11,560 nucleotides of DNA from UHGV virus genome UHGV-0176440; one strand, 5' to 3'. Both the position numbers and the translations under genes were made by a program. This document shows positions 1 through 7,952 of this stretch, piece after piece; position 1 is the first letter of the stretch, and every line of letters begins with the position of its first letter. Below the pieces are notes generated by a model. The model did not search any database, was not told where the DNA came from, and saw nothing but the letters and a program-made list of their open reading frames with translations. Source of the DNA: a virus.

Positions 1-121
1 GCTTAACGACAACTTCTGCGCCATCCACTTTGCTTGCACCCTCAGCAACTGCGCGTGCCATCGTTTCAATATGTCCGTACATGGAATAATAAAGCACTAG
101 TATTCTTGCCTTAACACTCAT
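1..121 (-). CDS. wrbA: NAD(P)H:quinone oxidoreductase WrbA, N-terminal fragment (gene continues beyond window start)
   Basis: Reverse complement of 1-121 reads from ATG (119-121) as [40 protein letters not shown], the flavodoxin-like WrbA N-terminus ([33 protein letters not shown] as I recall it from E. coli WrbA). GC is clearly higher here than in the rest of the window. Confidence 0.85.
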
Positions 122-172
122 ATCATTGTTCTCCTGTTCAATGAACCACTTAGATAAGCATAGTCCGAAGAT

Positions 173-1816
173 ATGAAGCTGCTAGTGACATACATCAGGT
201 GGAGTACTAAAGAGCAAGACTCAGGAGACTCCTTAAGACGGCAAACAAACCTCATTGATGCTTTCTACTCTAAGCACAAAAACGATTATTACCTTCTTCC
301 TGCTCACAGATACGTTGATAAGGGTAAATCTGGTTTTCACCAGCAACATAAGGCTCAAGGTTCTGACTTCAGACGTATGTTTGAAAATGTTATGTCTGGG
401 GCTATTCCAGAAGGTTCCCTGATTGTTGTAGAGAACTTTGACCGCTTCAGTAGGGCTGATATCGACACAGCTATAGATGATGTCAGGCAGATACTGAGGA
501 AAGGAGTCTCTATACTGACTCTGGGAGATGGTGAACTCTACGACAAATCAGCATTAACAGACCCTGTGAAGTTGATTAAGCACATCATCATAGCTGAGAG
601 AGCACATCAGGAATCTCTTGTTAAGCAAAAGCGTATAGCTCAGGTCTGGAACCATAAAACACAGCTTGCAAGAGAACTTAAGAAGCCTATGGGTAAGCAA
701 GCCCCCGGATGGTTAGAGCTATCAGAAGACGGTTCACACTACATCGTTGATGAAGATAAAGCGTCACTGGTGAATATCATCTATGACAAGCGTCTTTCTG
801 GTATGTCGATGTTTGCTATCTGTAAATGGTTAAACGAACAAGGTTACCCGACCATTAATCAGCGTAAGGTCAGAATATCCAAGACTAAGAAACCTGATGG
901 TAACTGGTCAGCATTAAGCGTTAAACACATCCTGACTTCACGAAGTGTATTAGGTTACCTTCCCGCTAAGATTTCTACAGAAGACCGTAAAACAGTGTTA
1001 CGTGAAGAAATTGAAGGGTTCTATCCTCAGATTGTCACAGATTCTAAGTTTTACGCTGTACAGCAACTGTTAGAGGAAACAGGGAAGGGGAAAACATCCA
1101 GCGGTGAACACTGGCTATATGTGAACATACTGAAGGGGCTTATCCGTTGTAAGTGTGGGCTTGTAATGACTCCTACAGGGATACGTAAACCCGTTTATCA
1201 AGGTACTTACCGTTGCAATGGTAATAAGGAGTCCCGTTGTAGCTACGGTACAGTGTCCAGAAAGTTACTTGATACACAGCTTTGCAGTCGTCTGTTTAGC
1301 AAACTATCACAGCTACACGATGAAGCTACCGATACAGCTAAATTAGATGAACTACAAAGAAGATTAAACACCGTTGATAGTGAACTGGAAAAACTCACTG
1401 AGACGCTGATACAGCTACCTAACATCACCCAGATTCAGGAAGCACTACGGGTTAAACAGGAAGAAAAAGATGAACTGATAGTTCAGTTATCACGAGAAAA
1501 GGCGAGGGTAAAATCTGTATCAAGCTTGGATTTAAGCGGTCTTGATATGGAGTCTGTAGAGGGGAGAACTGAAGCCCAGATTATCATTAAGCGTCTGGTG
1601 AAAGAGATTGTTGTTTCTGGTAATGAAAAGCTGGTGGATATATATCTTCACAATGGAAATATGATTCGTGGTTTCCCTCTTGATGGTAAAGATGACCACA
1701 CCTTAACGCTTGAAGAAGCAACCGATGAGATGCAGTCATTAGATGATATGCTTATTTTTGGTGAACCAGTAACAAGGATTTATCCTGCTGGTGATATGGA
1801 AGAGGTGGACGCTTAG
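173..1816 (+). CDS. Large serine recombinase (integrase)
   Basis: 547-aa ORF. N-terminal resolvase-type catalytic motif YIRWSTKEQ, Cys-rich zinc-ribbon segment (CKCG...[13 protein letters not shown]) and coiled-coil C-terminal region, the standard large-serine-recombinase architecture. Confidence 0.92.
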
Positions 1817-2601
1817 TATTTTTTATTAGGGTTCACTGAGTACTTTTTAAGCTTTGAAGCTACTCGACCAGCGTTACTATTAGCATTGGTGACGTTGGTT
1901 TTTTCAGCTTCTGTTAAGTCTGAATAGTCCAGCTTCCAAGCCTTATTACACTTAATCTGAGCATCGAGAATATCATTTCTGATAGCTGGAGCGTAACCGG
2001 ATACATCGCTAATACTCATTAGCTCTTTGCACGATAGCATAGGCGCGTTATTGCGTTCAGTGGTCACGTTACCTGTATTCTTCTTACTGGTAGCACCACC
2101 ATCATTCGTAGTCGCGGCTTTTCCAGTTGCAGCCGAGATATCAGTCTGCCCCACAACAGCTTTGAAGTTGATTTCCTGAAAAGTTAGCTGGATTCTTAGA
2201 CCATTTGAAATACCAACATCTTTAGAGGCTTTAAAACTTGTGATAATGGAATCATCAATTTTAATTCCGTCTTTACAGATGACCGAAATAATTTGTTTCT
2301 GGTCACGCCAGTTTTCCAGAGTGTCAATGAAGTTTTCTACTAATTGGCCCTGACGAGTTAATAATAAGCTCCCTTCATAGCCAACTACAACGACACCACT
2401 AATAGTGATTGTTCTGGGTGCTCTTTGCACATTATCTGTGACGGTTTGCCCTGATTGCATGTTCTGTGTAGTCACCTGCATAGGGCTATCAAATTCCATA
2501 TTTTCAGTTGCTGATAAGGTTAAGAAGGCATCTACATTATCTCTTAAGTGGAAATAGATGCCATCTTTGCCACTGTAGCGGATTTGATTAGAGTAAATCA
2601 T
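1813..2601 (-). CDS. Hypothetical protein (262 aa), immediately downstream of the tape-measure-like gene; possibly a tail-associated protein
   Basis: ORF-track ORF 1813-2622 trimmed to the ATG at 2599-2601, which has an AGGAG SD 8 nt upstream (minus-strand sense ...AAGGAGAATTTAATG). Stop codon overlaps the integrase stop (convergent). No recognisable motif. Confidence 0.6.
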
Positions 2602-2757
2602 TAAATTCTCCTTTGATTTCAAAGGCTTAGTGTATTTTAATCATTTTTAACCAAGCCTTTGATATATAAGTGTTTTCTCTGTTAAGCGTGAGCTACGTGA
2701 AAAATAATTTTTGGTGTGGGTATTAACTTTGCTTTATTCACGTAGAACACCGTTAAA

Positions 2758-4926
2758 TCAATCATCTTCTGGGAATGATGAACTTAATAGCGTAGCTTCT
2801 GCATATTGGTCGTAGATATTACTGCTAAAGGTCATAAAGCTGGTTTCATCTGGTTTAATGGCAACTTCACCACCAAGTGAAACTTTCACAGGCTCCTGAA
2901 TACGCTTACTTAAAGCAGAGATTTCATCCCTCAGACCCTGAATATCTGCACTCGTTAATGATGCATCTTGTTTCATGGTAATTAATTCTGGATGATTGAA
3001 TCTTGCAATATTCATTGTGGCATTGTTAAACAATTCACCCATTGAACTAAAAATTCTACTCCATCCTTCGTTAATCACATTCGGTTTATTAGGGTCACCA
3101 GAATACACAGGATTAAAGTCACTACCCACACCTACCCCAGATGGATGCATATTAGCGTTTTTGACTACTTCCTGATTCATAAAATCCAGTGCTTTCTTCA
3201 ATGCATATAAACCAAGGGTGACACCTCTGATTTGTGGAATCATTGAAGCTAATGCTAACGCTGTTTCATAACCGTCATCAGCATAACCAATTGCAAGAGC
3301 ACTACCTACACCACCAGCTACACCTTTCAGTTTACCAGTAGCTACCTGACCAGCCACCTGATTAGCTCTTGTACCTAACGTTGTGATTGCTCTTGTCAGG
3401 TTCATAACCCCTGTAGTAGCACTGAATAGTGTCTTTGCAGATAACGCTATAGCAAGACCTTTGACGAAGTTGATAAAACCATCACCGACTTCATCAAGTA
3501 GTTTTCGTTTAGTGTCATCAAGGCTGTAATAGAACTTCTTAGTCTGTAAAATCCAGCCTTCAATGGTGTTATTGAATACGCGAATATCATCTACACCAGC
3601 TTTAAGCATGTCGATAAGTCCACCGATAGCATCACCAGCGATAGAAGAACTCATCCCCATTTCACTAAGCAGGTTACTCAGGCTGGATAAGAAGCCGTTT
3701 AACTCATCCTGTGAACCTGAGAAGATTTTCACCATCGTATCATCCCAGTTGTTAGCCAGTTTCCCTAAAGCTGTCTGAGTGCTCTTAGCGACTTCAGCCC
3801 AGCCACCCGCTTTATCAATCATCAAGCCCATCTGTTTAGCGACTTTAGGGAGAGTATCACTACTTAAAATCTTCCCGTTTTTCATGGCTGCATCAAGCTC
3901 TGTAGCAGTCATACCCAATGCTTCAGCGAATAGCTTAAATGCACCAGCCATACGGTCACCTAACTGCCCACGTAATTCTTCAGCCTGAATCTTGCCCTTA
4001 GAAGCCATCTGCTCAAATGCTTTCAAAATGCCGTTTAGCTCGTCGTTAGAAAGCCCCATTAAGCGACTCATAGCCGTTGCATTACCAAATAGTTCCTGTG
4101 TCTGTTCCTGTGACATAGAACCCTGAGCACCTGCTGCAAACTTAGCGTAGCTTGATAGCCCTTCAGAGATATTAAGACCTGTCTTGTCAGCCAGTCCCCT
4201 GATAAATGTTTCAGCTTCAGATGCTTTATCACCAAGTACAAACTTAGCGGCTCTCTGTGCGGAATCTCGTTTAAGACCTGCATTCATAATGGCCTTGTAA
4301 GCGTTAAGAGCACCCATCACAGAGTAAAATGCACCAGATAATTTAATTGCATTGCTTGCAAGATTATTAAATGCGTCGCTTGTATTATTAATGCTGGTGG
4401 TCTTTGTCTGTGACCTGAGTTTATTCAACGTTTCACGAAGAGATTGATTTAATTTTGCAAGTTCAGCGTTAAACTTTTCACTTCCAATATTACCAGCCTT
4501 GCCGCTTAAACTGTAATATTGTGCTTTAAACATTTTAGCCATCAGCGGATTAATATCACCAAGCTTAGACATATTCACACTATGCGCTGCTGTGATTGCT
4601 CTGTTGCCGCTAATTCGTGGCTGTCTCGGTTGTTTTGGAGGATTAACAGTGTCATTAAATCTGGTGGTAAACTGGAAAACTTTTGTGCTTCGTGCTCTAG
4701 CTTCCAGACGGTCAAAGGTCTTATTAATTTTTCCTTCCATTGACTTTAAAGAACTTGTCAGATTGCTGTCAAATTTCTTGGTATCGACCTTAAACGCCCT
4801 ATTCAAATTACGTTCAATTCTTTGTGCTGATTGCAAAGCTGCCTTTTCAACTCTTTGCAAGCCCTTAACAACGTTCTCGCTGAAGCCTAGCTCAACGATA
4901 AAACTATCAACTGTGAATTTGCTCAT
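2758..4926 (-). CDS. Phage tail tape-measure-like protein (722 aa)
   Basis: Long low-complexity helical protein rich in A/L/K/G/S. Central segment SNDELNGILKAFEQMASKGKIQAEELRGQLGDRMAGAFKLFAEALGMTATELDAAMKNGKILSSDTLPKVAKQMG resembles the conserved tape-measure domain; Gly-rich hydrophobic C-terminal stretch. SD GAGGTG upstream of ATG. Confidence 0.7.
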   Translation of the reverse strand: MSKFTVDSFIVELGFSENVVKGLQRVEKAALQSAQRIERNLNRAFKVDTKKFDSNLTSSLKSMEGKINKTFDRLEARARSTKVFQFTTRFNDTVNPPKQPRQPRISGNRAITAAHSVNMSKLGDINPLMAKMFKAQYYSLSGKAGNIGSEKFNAELAKLNQSLRETLNKLRSQTKTTSINNTSDAFNNLASNAIKLSGAFYSVMGALNAYKAIMNAGLKRDSAQRAAKFVLGDKASEAETFIRGLADKTGLNISEGLSSYAKFAAGAQGSMSQEQTQELFGNATAMSRLMGLSNDELNGILKAFEQMASKGKIQAEELRGQLGDRMAGAFKLFAEALGMTATELDAAMKNGKILSSDTLPKVAKQMGLMIDKAGGWAEVAKSTQTALGKLANNWDDTMVKIFSGSQDELNGFLSSLSNLLSEMGMSSSIAGDAIGGLIDMLKAGVDDIRVFNNTIEGWILQTKKFYYSLDDTKRKLLDEVGDGFINFVKGLAIALSAKTLFSATTGVMNLTRAITTLGTRANQVAGQVATGKLKGVAGGVGSALAIGYADDGYETALALASMIPQIRGVTLGLYALKKALDFMNQEVVKNANMHPSGVGVGSDFNPVYSGDPNKPNVINEGWSRIFSSMGELFNNATMNIARFNHPELITMKQDASLTSADIQGLRDEISALSKRIQEPVKVSLGGEVAIKPDETSFMTFSSNIYDQYAEATLLSSSFPEDD

Positions 4927-4956
4927 TCATATTTTTCACCTCTTAAGTGTTCATAT

Positions 4957-4999
4957 ACAAAAAAGGGAGAGCTACCGATGTCACTCGATAATCTCTCCC
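4957..4999 (-). terminator. Rho-independent terminator/attenuator (minus strand) between the 67-aa gene and the tape-measure-like gene
   Basis: Minus-strand RNA: GGGAGAG...CTCTCCC stem (plus strand 4965-4971 / 4993-4999) with inner CGA/TCG pairing, followed by UUUUUUGUAU (plus-strand A-run 4957-4964). Confidence 0.5.
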
Positions 5000-5046
5000 C
5001 GTGTTATAGATTCGATAGAACCTATCTCATACACCCAACCAATTCT

Positions 5047-5250
5047 TTATCTAATCAGATAATAATTACCATCTTCACCGACAATCTGACAATCACTTGG
5101 TAATTTATCAAGACACCATTTAGCGATTCTTCTGATTCTGTTATTTTGCTTAGAGGTGGATGATTTGATTCGTTTTGGTTTGTTGGGTTGTTCTTTCAAT
5201 CTCTCGCTAATTGCTTTAATAAGTTCATAGCGTTCCGTTAAATCAATCAT
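5047..5250 (-). CDS. Hypothetical small basic protein (67 aa)
   Basis: ORF with a very strong SD (AAAGGAGGTG, 6-nt spacer) before ATG; 25 nt downstream of the 236-aa gene stop. Confidence 0.6.
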   Translation of the reverse strand: MIDLTERYELIKAISERLKEQPNKPKRIKSSTSKQNNRIRRIAKWCLDKLPSDCQIVGEDGNYYLIR

Positions 5251-5275
5251 TCACCACCTCCTTTTTAATTCATAG

Positions 5276-5986
5276 TCAAAGTGCCTTTGCATACTTCTGA
5301 GAAATCTTCGTAAGCTGCTCAATATCAGCCTGCATAGCAACCTTCTTCTGCGTTTCATATGCAGAAATAAGGTCTTTCATAGCCTGAAGCTCTCTTGAGA
5401 GATACAACTTAGCACTATCAAGCTGCTTGTTACGTGATGCCAAGATGTTCTGTCTAGCAAGTTCACAGAGTTCTTCATCGCTCTTATCGGTCATGTAAAT
5501 AAACTGACCAGCACCTCTTGAAGCTTTAACCATCTTCACAATTCGATATCCATCAGGAAGACTACTAATCGCGGCTGGGATGTTTTCTGGATAAATACCA
5601 AAACCGTCATTGTCTTCGTATTGGTAATAGACAAATGGTTTCTGTGACAATTCATCCTGAATCTCAAATTCTGACGGCTCAATAGCTGATTGCATCAAGG
5701 TAACTTTGCTGTAAGCGTCATCTAATCTAAGGCGCTGTTCTTTTAACTGTGGGTAATATTCACGCTCAAGATTAAATAGTGCTTCAGTTTTGCATACATC
5801 AGGCATCTCTTGAGATTCAGGAGCCACAAAGGTAACTTGCTTTGGTGACATCTTTAGCGATTGCTCAAGCTCAATACGCTTGTCATGCTCTTGACGCTGG
5901 ATAGTGATAGCTGGATGCTCAGTCTGTGGTGACCAGTCGCCAAAACTATCAATCTTTTTACCGTTAATATATAAATCGTTTGTCAT
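5276..5986 (-). CDS. Hypothetical protein (236 aa) with helical/coiled-coil C-terminus
   Basis: ORF with SD AGAGGAAA upstream of ATG; no recognisable catalytic motif. Confidence 0.65.
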   Translation of the reverse strand: MTNDLYINGKKIDSFGDWSPQTEHPAITIQRQEHDKRIELEQSLKMSPKQVTFVAPESQEMPDVCKTEALFNLEREYYPQLKEQRLRLDDAYSKVTLMQSAIEPSEFEIQDELSQKPFVYYQYEDNDGFGIYPENIPAAISSLPDGYRIVKMVKASRGAGQFIYMTDKSDEELCELARQNILASRNKQLDSAKLYLSRELQAMKDLISAYETQKKVAMQADIEQLTKISQKYAKAL

Positions 5987-6014
5987 TGTTTCATTTCCTC
6001 TAAGTGTGTGGTTA

Positions 6015-6092
6015 TTTCTTAATAGAGCACCTTCAACGCCAATACACTTAGAAGATGACTTAACGATTTATTAAAGATGCTCTATTAAGAAA
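6015..6092. repeat. Perfect 15-bp inverted repeat (TTTCTTAATAGAGCA / TGCTCTATTAAGAAA) separated by 48 bp
   Basis: Arms at 6015-6029 and 6078-6092 are exact reverse complements; located in the upstream region of the 236-aa gene. Confidence 0.8.
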
Positions 6093-6102
6093 AGCCCTAA
6101 AC

Positions 6103-6146
6103 ATAGGTGATTCGGATATTCATGGAATCATCCTCATCTGTGAAGG
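6103..6146 (+). repeat. Copy A of a roughly 40-nt dispersed repeat with an internal hairpin (TGATTC-11nt-GAATCA)
   Basis: ATAGGTGATTCGGATATTCATGGAATCATCCTCATCTGTG matches 11465-11508 (ATAGTTGATTCGGATGTTCTAGGAATCATCCTCATACGTG) at about 36 of 41 positions, same orientation. Confidence 0.8.
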
Positions 6147-6220
6147 GCTTTGAAGGTTTGCTTTAACGTTAACGAAGTTTCAGGAAAAACTTTCTTTAAA
6201 AGCTCTGTTTAAAAACTCTT

Positions 6221-6250
6221 AAAGAAAACGCCCTAATCATGAGTTAGGGC
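6221..6250 (-). terminator. Rho-independent terminator (minus strand) downstream of the 107-aa/micro-ORF unit
   Basis: Minus-strand RNA GCCCUAA-cucauga-UUAGGGC followed by GUUUUCUUU (plus-strand stem 6230-6236 / 6244-6250, A-rich 6221-6229). A weaker hairpin plus U-tract lies at about 6393-6412. Confidence 0.55.
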
Positions 6251-6474
6251 AAAGCTGTAAGGGTTCAATAATGAATGATTAAGCACTTTTTGATATATAG
6301 CCTATCTAGTGGGCTAAATAGGCCATGTAGCGAAAAGCATTGCACCTTTCAGAATAACTATCCCTAGATGTAGATGGAATTGTTGAAAGAAATAAGAGAG
6401 AATTGCTCTCCCATACTTAAAATTATGGCATATTTAAGGTTATTTGTCAACAGCTTTTTAACAGATTGGTAACA

Positions 6475-6552
6475 TTAATTCTTATTTACCGTGTTACCTA
6501 CCCAGCAACCAACAAATAAACCCAAAGCTGTCCAAGCAATTATTAAGCCCAT
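6475..6552 (-). CDS. Unannotated micro-ORF, 25-aa hydrophobic peptide (MGLIIAWTALGLFVGCWVGNTVNKN)
   Basis: ATG overlaps the stop of the upstream 107-aa ORF in a TAATG arrangement (translational coupling). Single predicted transmembrane-like helix. Not in the ORF track because of length. Confidence 0.35.
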   Translation of the reverse strand: MGLIIAWTALGLFVGCWVGNTVNKN

Positions 6553-6875
6553 TAATGCACCACCTTCGAATCCGTCACCAAAATATTGTCAGCGTACAAA
6601 ATTGCTATAGCTGCCTTGAGATATCTTTCAGGGCTAACGCTGTATCGGTTCGTTTGCTCGATAACCAATCTTTTCATGTTGCTGTCTTTAATTGGTAGCA
6701 TCATTCGAGGCTCGTTAAACTCCACCGACTGAATAAAATCTTCAATTGCTTCTGAGTTTTCAGCCATGAGCTTTAGCAGCTTGTCAAAGTCAATGCTAAC
6801 ACCTACATCAGTGAAAGCCTGAATCATCATAGCGGTGTCGCTATCAACGAAAATTTGCATTGGGTGATTATTCAT
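6552..6875 (-). CDS. Hypothetical acidic protein (107 aa)
   Basis: ORF with SD AGAGGAAT 8 nt upstream of ATG; no recognisable motif. Confidence 0.6.
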   Translation of the reverse strand: MNNHPMQIFVDSDTAMMIQAFTDVGVSIDFDKLLKLMAENSEAIEDFIQSVEFNEPRMMLPIKDSNMKRLVIEQTNRYSVSPERYLKAAIAILYADNILVTDSKVVH

Positions 6876-7012
6876 TTTTAAATTCCTCTAAAACACATCT
6901 TAAATCTGCCAAAATAGCCATTCTGAGGCCAGTAACCATGCGGGTTACAGAGGGAGTGAGACACCTTAGTAATAGGGTAGCTCATCTTTGAGTCTCACTC
7001 ATTCTCACAGGC

Positions 7013-7399
7013 TTACACAGACGCTTTAATCTTGTAGTATTGACTGCGTGATAAGCCGTATTTCTCAGAAATATAACTTTGTGATTGTCCTTTGGTGATT
7101 GCATCAATGATTAAATCTTTATTGTATCTGTTGCCATTGGTTTTGTGCTTGTCACCACTTTTAATAGAGTTGAAATTCTCAATTAATTTAATGGCGTCTT
7201 TAAGGTCGTCTTCGTAAGCATAATCAAAACCCCTGATAAACTCGAAATCACCATTATCTTTTTGTGCTTCAGTCCAGATATCAAATCTTGAGGCTAATTG
7301 CTGGTGGGTAAACTTGGGTTTATTGGTTTCTGTTATGTCTTTCCAGACTCTACCGTCAAATCTTACCAAATGGTCACGATGTTTATAAAAGTCATACAT
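7013..7399 (-). CDS. Putative DNA-binding protein with C-terminal helix-turn-helix (128 aa)
   Basis: ORF-track ORF 7013-7432 starts at TTG; the internal ATG at 7397-7399 has AGGAGG just upstream and overlaps the HNH gene stop (TAATG). C-terminal segment NRYNKDLIIDAITKGQSQSYISEKYGLSRSQYYKIK looks like a resolvase/terminase-small-subunit-type HTH. Confidence 0.6.
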   Translation of the reverse strand: MYDFYKHRDHLVRFDGRVWKDITETNKPKFTHQQLASRFDIWTEAQKDNGDFEFIRGFDYAYEDDLKDAIKLIENFNSIKSGDKHKTNGNRYNKDLIIDAITKGQSQSYISEKYGLSRSQYYKIKASV

Positions 7400-7671
7400 T
7401 AAACCTCCTGTAGTAAATTGTTTGGGTGGCAATTTCTTTTATTACCATCCCTGAAGATAATTTTTTTAGTTGCCTGAACTTCATGATGCAAAAACCAGAT
7501 GACATATTTCACATAATAATCACGAGTGCCATAACGAATCATTGGATTACCGTAAGCGTCATCTCTTGTCTTAACCTCTCCACCATCAATCCATTCAAGC
7601 ATTCCTGTTTCGTAATTAATCATGAAGTAAGTTGCAAAGAACCGTTTAATATCATCTCGCCATTGCTTCAT
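7399..7671 (-). CDS. HNH endonuclease (90 aa)
   Basis: Motif VIWFLHHEVQATKKIIFRDGNKRNCHPNNLLQ (paired His, then DGNK..N..NL) typical of small phage-associated HNH nucleases. SD AAGAGG upstream of ATG. Confidence 0.7.
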   Translation of the reverse strand: MKQWRDDIKRFFATYFMINYETGMLEWIDGGEVKTRDDAYGNPMIRYGTRDYYVKYVIWFLHHEVQATKKIIFRDGNKRNCHPNNLLQEV

Positions 7672-7673
7672 AA

Positions 7674-7952
7674 TCAGACCTCTTGAGATAACTTGTGAAT
7701 CTTGATGCTCAATAGTCGGGCAATATCAATTTTAAAGCTGTTAAGTGCCTTCAAAGTATCTAAAGCGTCCGTAGTAATTCGGATGTGCTTACGACCTTTA
7801 GAGACTGGATATTTAAGTAAATCCGACTCAGTGACTTCTTTAGCAATTGCAAGCTGCATAACAGTCTGATGAGGCAAGTTAGTTGCTCGTTTAATTCTGT
7901 TAAGCTCGTTAAAAGCTTCCTCTGAAATACGGGTTAATGTGTGTTTATTCAT
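7674..7952 (-). CDS. Putative ribbon-helix-helix DNA-binding protein, possibly tandem RHH (92 aa)
   Basis: Two beta-strand-then-two-helix patterns (HTLTRISEEAFNELNRIKRATNLPHQTVMQLAIAK and KHIRITTDALDTLKALNSFKIDIARLL). ATG directly follows the TAA of the upstream gene; SD AGAGGAA. Confidence 0.55.
   Translation of the reverse strand: MNKHTLTRISEEAFNELNRIKRATNLPHQTVMQLAIAKEVTESDLLKYPVSKGRKHIRITTDALDTLKALNSFKIDIARLLSIKIHKLSQEV

Follow-up and report, generated by a model that had tools for sequence, protein, structure and literature searches.

What becomes of a host gene when a mobile element integrates within its first codons? The question is raised by the virus genome UHGV-0176440, a stretch of 11,560 nucleotides (hereafter the window, meaning this whole stretch, read as one strand from 5′ to 3′), at the left end of which a fragment of the Escherichia coli gene wrbA stands back to back with a recombinase gene (int). 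Our analysis indicates that the window holds a serine-integrase element inserted at wrbA codon 6, and that this element rebuilds the 5′ end of the gene it occupies; we assign the explanation as a whole a probability of roughly 85%. In the proposed mechanism, the large serine recombinase of the 11.4-kb element would recombine attP with an attB whose centre is codon 6, the strands being exchanged at the dinucleotide AC (positions 96–97). The P′ half-site of attP, being coding sequence, would give wrbA eight new codons, ATG included, behind a GGAG ribosome-binding site (RBS), while the native promoter, RBS and first five codons would go 11.4 kb away to attR. Transcription of the gene would then have to begin in element DNA, the most probable source being a sigma-S-type promoter within the 51 bp between wrbA and int, with its –10 at 156–163.

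The extent of the element was determined against an unoccupied wrbA locus (L001, E. coli strain FDAARGOS_1253), which served as the empty-site reference. The window is identical to this locus over positions 1–97, mismatches it for the first time at 98 and is identical to it again over 11506–11560. A 7-bp direct repeat, AAAGCAC, at 91–97 and 11506–11512 flanks the element, which with one core copy counted spans 98–11512 (11,415 bp); as both junctions lie inside the window, the whole element is contained in it. It is positioned between the body of wrbA and the native wrbA upstream region, and the same element is found between wrbA and ymdF in carrier loci from complete genomes (L002, L013 and L014). 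Integration into the wrbA 5′ end, which a preliminary description of the sequence had proposed, is thus borne out at both junctions (97/98 and 11505/11506), and the comparison with an unoccupied locus that it had suggested has located the breakpoint and the 7-bp core. Its placement of attL in about 100–172 has to be abandoned: empty-site identity ends at 97, the core occupies 91–97, and attL spans roughly 75–122.

The left junction falls inside an uninterrupted open reading frame (ORF). The wrbA fragment occupies 1–121 on the minus strand, with an ATG that is the reverse complement of 119–121. Positions 1–97, 100% identical to L001, are host-derived, encode Val6 (GTG) to Lys37 in native numbering and form the B arm of attL. 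Positions 98–121 (minus strand) are absent from the empty site, double as the P′ half-site of attP and supply the first eight codons, ATG AGT GTT AAG GCA AGA ATA CTA (MSVKARIL). Native WrbA begins MAKVLVLYY in L001, the crystallised protein 2r96 agrees, and hybrid and native proteins have identical residues from Val6 onward; eight element codons replace five native ones (M-A-K-V-L becomes M-S-V-K-A-R-I-L). The element also supplies a Shine-Dalgarno (SD) sequence, CAGGAG (131–136, minus strand), with 9 nt between GGAG and the ATG, and the entire intergenic region of 51 bp (122–172) between the divergent hybrid wrbA and recombinase genes. A remodelled WrbA N-terminus, a distance of 51 bp between the two ATG codons, and an element origin of the start codon and first codons had all been claimed beforehand; each holds, the second exactly, and the SD sequence is to be added to what the element provides.

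Does the rebuilt gene encode a plausible WrbA? In occupied strains PGAP annotates an intact wrbA of 201 amino acids. In the comparison with 2r96, hybrid A5-R-I-L aligns with native A2-K-V-L. We take this part of the protein to be the first beta strand and SMYGH to be the flavin-binding loop. On this alignment A-R-I-L appears to mimic native A-K-V-L, both the strand and the loop are predicted to be kept, and the hybrid enzyme would be expected to be active.

Alternatively, MSVKAR… could be a natural wrbA allele, the element lying upstream of an untouched gene. Nothing favours this beyond the intact ORF itself. The native ATG and first five codons are found at attR (11513–11527), beside the duplicated core, and no genome has the MSVKAR 5′ end without the recombinase, so that this alternative is already refuted and retains practically no probability. 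The genomes in question are 5,426 complete E. coli genomes, in which a search for element-free loci with the MSVKAR N-terminus, named in the preliminary description as the evidence that would speak against it, found none. Of these genomes, 5,417 match the wrbA portion of the window, and the match extends past about position 100 in only 74. When 98–400 was used alone as query, the same 74 genomes were recovered, all with full-length matches, and among the matches listed every one carried the paired annotation ‘recombinase family protein’ and ‘wrbA’. The rebuilt 5′ end is thus strictly linked to the recombinase. Between strains, int genes diverge by as much as 4.6% with no change in the attL segment 98–175. 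In strain SLK172 (L013 20076–23450) int is interrupted by ISEc12, an IS21-family insertion sequence, and the element is probably immobilised as a result; its hybrid wrbA is still intact.

The enzyme encoded by int (173–1816, plus strand, divergent from wrbA; 547 amino acids) is, by its domain content, a large serine recombinase and not a tyrosine integrase. Pfam domains PF00239 (Resolvase, E = 6.3e-11, residues 5–155) and PF07508 (Recombinase, E = 5.6e-20, residues 194–302) are followed by a match to PF13408 (Zn_ribbon_recom, E = 2e-4) which at 22.1 bits is below the curated cutoff of 25.3; four cysteines (326, 328, 348 and 356) form a CxC…Cx7C pattern. The predicted nucleophile is Ser11, in YIRWSTKEQ. 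The earlier designation ‘integrase’ therefore stands, and the Resolvase and Recombinase domains give it a class. No candidate for a directionality factor was identified.

Serine recombinases exchange strands at a 2-bp overlap, and several observations point to AC at 96–97, which is the GT of the Val6 codon GTG when read in the wrbA sense. Position 98 is T in attL and C at the equivalent position of attR, which places strand exchange to the left of 98. The attL and attR sites of a relative from Klebsiella michiganensis (L004) have ACCAG in common, and the E. coli core AAAGCAC and this Klebsiella core overlap in AC only. The P half-site of attP, TACGTGTTTAGCTATGTAAAAGCAC (11488–11512, including the attR core copy), was obtained by empty-site alignment and dyad analysis. 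Dyad symmetry of the reconstructed attP peaks on AC, with 13 of 24 positions symmetrical against a window background of 6.2 ± 2.2; this is the best of 13 offsets and lies in the top 0.5% of window positions. An outer inverted motif, (C/A)GTGTTWAG, is present in attP, and the P′ half-site is an inverted match to the P arm. Compared by eye, attP and attB agree at 14 of 19 bases on the P′ arm. The attB site reads ATGG-N11-AC-N11-CCAT; its dyad symmetry is weak (9/24, not significant), which counts against our reading. The Klebsiella core overlap and the dyad centre of attP together make AC 96–97 the most likely crossover. Around the opposite junction, E. coli elements that are mosaic elsewhere agree at every position of 11488–11560, the conserved right end of the element amounting to only about 25 bp. 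Strain 2012C-4227 (L014, about 13999, equivalent to window position 95) has the attL core AAAGTAC instead of AAAGCAC; the change is synonymous (GTG to GTA in Val6) and leaves the AC unaltered.

Related integrases allow the arrangement to be followed beyond E. coli. A search of genome contigs with the integrase protein alone gave 47 pattern stretches and no true relatives, and relatives were reached by a homologous-protein search followed by retrieval of the encoding contigs. The integrase cluster comprises 2,970 member sequences, and nine homologues have 53–65% identity; six of the nine, from K. michiganensis, Enterobacter hormaechei, Erwinia and metagenomes, were examined. In all six the integrase is divergent from an adjoining wrbA of 205–206 amino acids. 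The element-supplied leaders of the relatives (MSSSELRGKPRIL, MTDEVRGKARIL, MQDEERVKARIL and MQDEQRAKTRIL) have a conserved end, K(A/P/T)RIL, which is encoded by the half-site, and a variable distal part. Leaders come in three lengths (8, 12 and 13 codons), all in frame and free of stop codons, and an ATG with a purine-rich, SD-like stretch upstream of it is always kept. Leader sequence and length vary, yet frame, ATG and SD-like stretch are preserved, and this argues for selection that keeps wrbA translatable, the argument resting on only three or four independent lineages.

A less purposeful explanation is that the hybrid N-terminus is a by-product of a P′ half-site that resembles attB, with no selection for WrbA. 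The P′ half-site and its inverted partner fall exactly on the supplied VKARIL codons, the agreement between attP and attB on this arm is considerable, and the hybrid that Shiga toxin (Stx) phages leave in the same gene is clearly not preserved. Conservation of KARIL could, likewise, reflect a half-site constraint of the integrase alone instead of selection on WrbA, and this tells against our interpretation. Yet the leaders differ outside the half-site and still meet the gene in frame behind an ATG and SD-like stretch, and in SLK172 the hybrid ORF is intact despite the broken integrase. We consider a mere by-product quite unlikely and selection for a translatable wrbA the better account.

Preservation of the target is not general among such enzymes. 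A serine integrase with 35% identity to the one described here (P0010, in L012) sits mid-gene in yecE and splits it; target-gene preservation would therefore be a property of the wrbA clade and not of the enzyme family. Both yecE and wrbA are classic sites of Stx phages, so unrelated integrases converge on the same genes. The yecE occupant (L012 9601–18042) is a similar small island, with a small resolvase and a DUF4145 protein, and its target, encoding a DUF72 protein, is divided into parts of 121 and 165 amino acids.

A translatable gene still has to be transcribed. Since integration has moved the native wrbA promoter to attR, at a distance of 11.4 kb, transcripts of the gene can only originate in element DNA. 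The candidate is a sigma-S-type extended –10, CTATGCTT, at 156–163 (minus strand), whose hexamer TATGCT precedes the wrbA ATG by 35 nt; the published consensus for a sigma-S extended –10 reads TCTATACTTAA or KCTAYRCTTAA (PMC3367168, PMC5650638). CTAYRCTT is found once in the window, both strands considered, and that one match is at 156–163 in wrbA orientation. In five relatives GCTACGCTT lies 33–34 nt from the wrbA ATG, and the –10 hexamer is 33–35 nt from it in six of seven lineages; the spacing of the motif to the int start codon (3 versus 9 nt) and to the crossover (59 versus 69–70 nt) differs.

Several points count against this promoter. No sigma-70 consensus is present in 1–700 on either strand. 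By chance the window should contain about two CTAYRCTT matches, which leaves the location of the motif as its only informative feature, and the motif was picked after the sequence had been viewed. The –14 base in the window is A, not the consensus K, and the K. michiganensis relative lacks the –10 motif. On balance, we lean slightly towards the element carrying a sigma-S-type promoter for wrbA. The preliminary description had the element supplying the promoter; of this claim, the displacement of the native one stands, and the remainder is a reading of the sigma-S-type –10. We also considered whether the intergenic region could be a diverged copy of the native wrbA promoter, with which it shares CTTATCT and TAAGTGGT; this was rejected, since the local alignment score of 18 is not significant against 16 ± 2.3 for shuffled sequences. 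At the right end, a sigma-70 scan found only two weak minus-strand sites, and no int promoter was identified in the scans of 1–700 and of the right end.

The lack of a sigma-70-type promoter and the motif-free K. michiganensis relative would equally suit a situation in which only reading frame and RBS are rescued, wrbA being silent or reached by read-through from minus-strand tail genes across int in antisense. The genes for a Dit-like baseplate protein and a tape measure (together 1813–4926) are indeed on the same strand as wrbA, and no terminator-like site was found in 1–700. Against this stand the constant distance of the sigma-S-type –10 from the ATG in six of seven lineages and the pointlessness of keeping an SD sequence and an in-frame ATG without a transcript. 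In the relatives, moreover, the tape measure is encoded at a great distance and on the other strand, so read-through cannot be the general mechanism. A rescue without a promoter is unlikely in our judgement, and a promoter within the 51-bp region remains the preferred candidate.

The displaced native 5′ end of wrbA lies at attR (11513–11560, minus strand; identical to L001 from 11506) and includes the native RBS, the 5′ untranslated region, the ATG (11525–11527) and the first five codons. The native codons run into element DNA and form a 10-codon mini-ORF, MAKVLVLLHS*, from 11527 down to 11495 on the minus strand. The displaced promoter, RBS and ATG point into the element, antisense to a small recombinase gene. 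We take the native wrbA promoter to be sigma-S (stationary-phase) dependent, and the mini-ORF arrangement could couple the element to it.

What kind of element is this? The Dit-like baseplate gene (1813–2622) and the tape-measure gene (2758–4926), both on the minus strand and assigned with Pfam and PHROGs, are in phage order. Identity to a Felixounavirus protein is 77% for the Dit-like protein, rising to about 98% within its 186 N-terminal residues; for the tape measure it is about 85% over the first 45 residues and 33% overall. At the DNA level, identity is 90–96% over parts of 1813–4926. The matching Felixounavirus phages are virulent, with genomes of about 88 kb; tail genes common to an 11-kb integrated island and strictly lytic phages are unusual. 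The link extends to non-coding DNA: 10065–10152 contains about 13 phased GGTNN repeats followed by CCACGTTAAAAATC / GGATnGTnGTAnCCACGTTAAAAATC and is 76–80% identical to a non-coding ‘repeat_region’ of Felixounavirus, for example in phage tootiki (10140–10226, downstream of DNA ligase). Conceivably, the island has borrowed this repeat as a cis site, for instance an origin, pac site or promoter. In the Enterobacter relative, too, the tape measure has its best phage matches in Ounavirinae-like myoviruses of 87–92 kb.

The remaining content is sparse. Near the right end lies a small serine recombinase of the DNA invertase type (10555–11130, plus strand; PHROG DNA invertase, E = 7.6e-56). Other cargo comprises an HNH nuclease, a weak helix-turn-helix protein (ORF 7013–7432) and several ORFs without a family match. 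A long stretch of about 2 kb (8511–10554) is devoid of convincing ORFs and holds a 48-nt direct repeat (9105–9152 and 9200–9247, 92% identical, 95 bp apart) and several other short repeats. Pfam and PHROGs recognise only the tape measure, the Dit-like protein, the HNH nuclease, the DNA invertase and the large serine recombinase, and capsid, terminase and lysis genes are not recognised by them in the element. PADLOC detected no known defence proteins among the ten window proteins scanned, and a tblastn search of phages with the 236-residue ORF found nothing. Other E. coli carriers have, in place of the small-recombinase module, a recombinase gene that is non-homologous to it and runs in the opposite direction (L002 30086–30634 and L013 32565–33113, both minus strand). 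The orientation differs between strains, which raised the possibility of an invertible segment; BLAST shows a replaced non-homologous module and not a simple inversion. The relatives from Enterobacter, Erwinia and metagenomes carry cargo of the abortive-infection type (AbiJ_NTD4/Abi_C, DUF4145; L006 21053–21701, L007 11157–11805, L011 11418–12335, L008 14980–15672 and L010 21359–21698). In the elements from Enterobacter and metagenomes this cargo directly follows the tape-measure gene, on the side of the far end.

The short list of recognisable phage genes (tape measure, Dit-like baseplate protein and HNH nuclease only), the lack of recognised capsid, terminase and lysis genes, and the disruption of int by an insertion sequence in one strain are what a decaying prophage remnant would leave, in which case the wrbA junction would be a fossil with no current mobility. 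We find this doubtful: the window has an intact int and two perfect att sites; elements of about 11 kb with an unchanged gene order recur in unrelated E. coli strains, whose copies are mosaics of 82–98% identity with constant size; and a similar small architecture (large serine recombinase, small resolvase and tape measure) is seen in other genera. The tail genes and the non-coding repeat from Felix-O1-like phages suggest that the element may instead be a satellite. Tentatively, and with the odds still against so specific a proposal, the wrbA serine-integrase elements might form a family that lives on virulent Felix-O1-like (Ounavirinae) myoviruses as satellites, or acts against them as anti-phage islands. 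They would carry a substitute tape measure and baseplate protein and a phage cis-acting repeat, and would reside without cost by bringing a prosthetic wrbA 5′ end that retains even sigma-S (stationary-phase) control; the native promoter would fire into the element. The main alternative to this proposal is the decayed prophage.

Replacement of a gene’s 5′ end is a known trick of integrative elements. Elements at dusA (with DAI integrases, e.g. IMEVchUSA3) and SXT at prfC replace N-terminal codons in frame and bring a new promoter, which for IMEVchUSA3 was demonstrated by lacZ fusion (PMC8409611, PMC4482086). The wrbA element is like them in inserting within the first codons (codon 6 of wrbA) and in supplying an in-frame start codon, N-terminus and RBS. 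It differs in that they use tyrosine integrases and other target genes, whereas here a large serine recombinase is at work; five native codons give way to eight that double as an attP half-site, and the promoter is only a candidate. It thus works like the dusA and prfC elements but, with a serine recombinase and wrbA as target, is not a member of the DAI family. What is new here is the site and the enzyme class. We found no description of a serine-recombinase element, satellite or integrative element at wrbA in the open-access literature.

Phage 21 and e14 at icd likewise integrate in a coding gene and provide a substitute gene end with ORF length kept (PMC3603311); unlike here, a tyrosine integrase is at work and the 3′ end is replaced, so that the element need not bring a promoter or start codon. 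With the phage serine integrases of phiC31, Bxb1, TP901-1, A118 and SPbeta the wrbA enzyme shares the Resolvase and Recombinase composition (their zinc ribbon having a match below cutoff here), short att sites, imperfect dyads and a 2-bp crossover, which in our case is deduced. With the classic serine integrases the target gene (comK, spsM, sigK) is interrupted and becomes whole again only upon excision; wrbA, in contrast, stays intact while occupied. The PLE satellites of Vibrio cholerae, small chromosomal islands that are linked to a virulent myovirus, also have a large serine recombinase (PMC6002521). The wrbA element resembles them as a small island without recognised capsid, terminase or lysis genes and with tail genes and a repeat related to Felixounavirus. 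Its gene content is unrelated, however, and PLEs integrate in repeats and not in a coding 5′ end.

A further comparison is with the other occupants of the same gene. Stx phages of the 933W, Sp5 and O104 type use the same host gene and the same 5′ region, and PGAP still calls a wrbA ORF next to them; they differ in having a tyrosine integrase with an excisionase and another breakpoint (O157 locus). The Stx phage att core, TTGAAACSAT (PMC5592225), corresponds to window positions 60–69, 27 bp deeper in wrbA, where it is intact and uninterrupted, so an Stx phage could still integrate beside the element. The hybrid WrbA left by the Stx phage, MINHILRHVETMARAV (O157:H7, L003 3040–3130), loses beta strand 1 and the SMYGH loop, both of which the wrbA element keeps. 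In O157:H7 the start of this hybrid overlaps the stop codon of the tyrosine integrase.

These findings correct the usual view that an occupied wrbA is a disrupted one, as in its listing among genes disrupted by phage integration (PMC3603311). The Stx phage removes the flavin-binding N-terminus, and 27 bp away the serine-integrase element rebuilds the gene, so that typing by polymerase chain reaction that scores wrbA as ‘occupied’ does not predict the WrbA phenotype. A natural attP/attB pair is defined for a large serine integrase, and its attB, a stretch of conserved coding sequence that nearly all E. coli and also other Enterobacterales possess, could be a native landing site. The strategy of fitting a gene with a 5′ prosthesis is extended from the tyrosine-integrase elements at dusA and prfC to a serine integrase, with the attP half-site itself serving as coding sequence. 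Potentially of greater value is the element itself, which may be an undescribed satellite of virulent phages used in typing and therapy.

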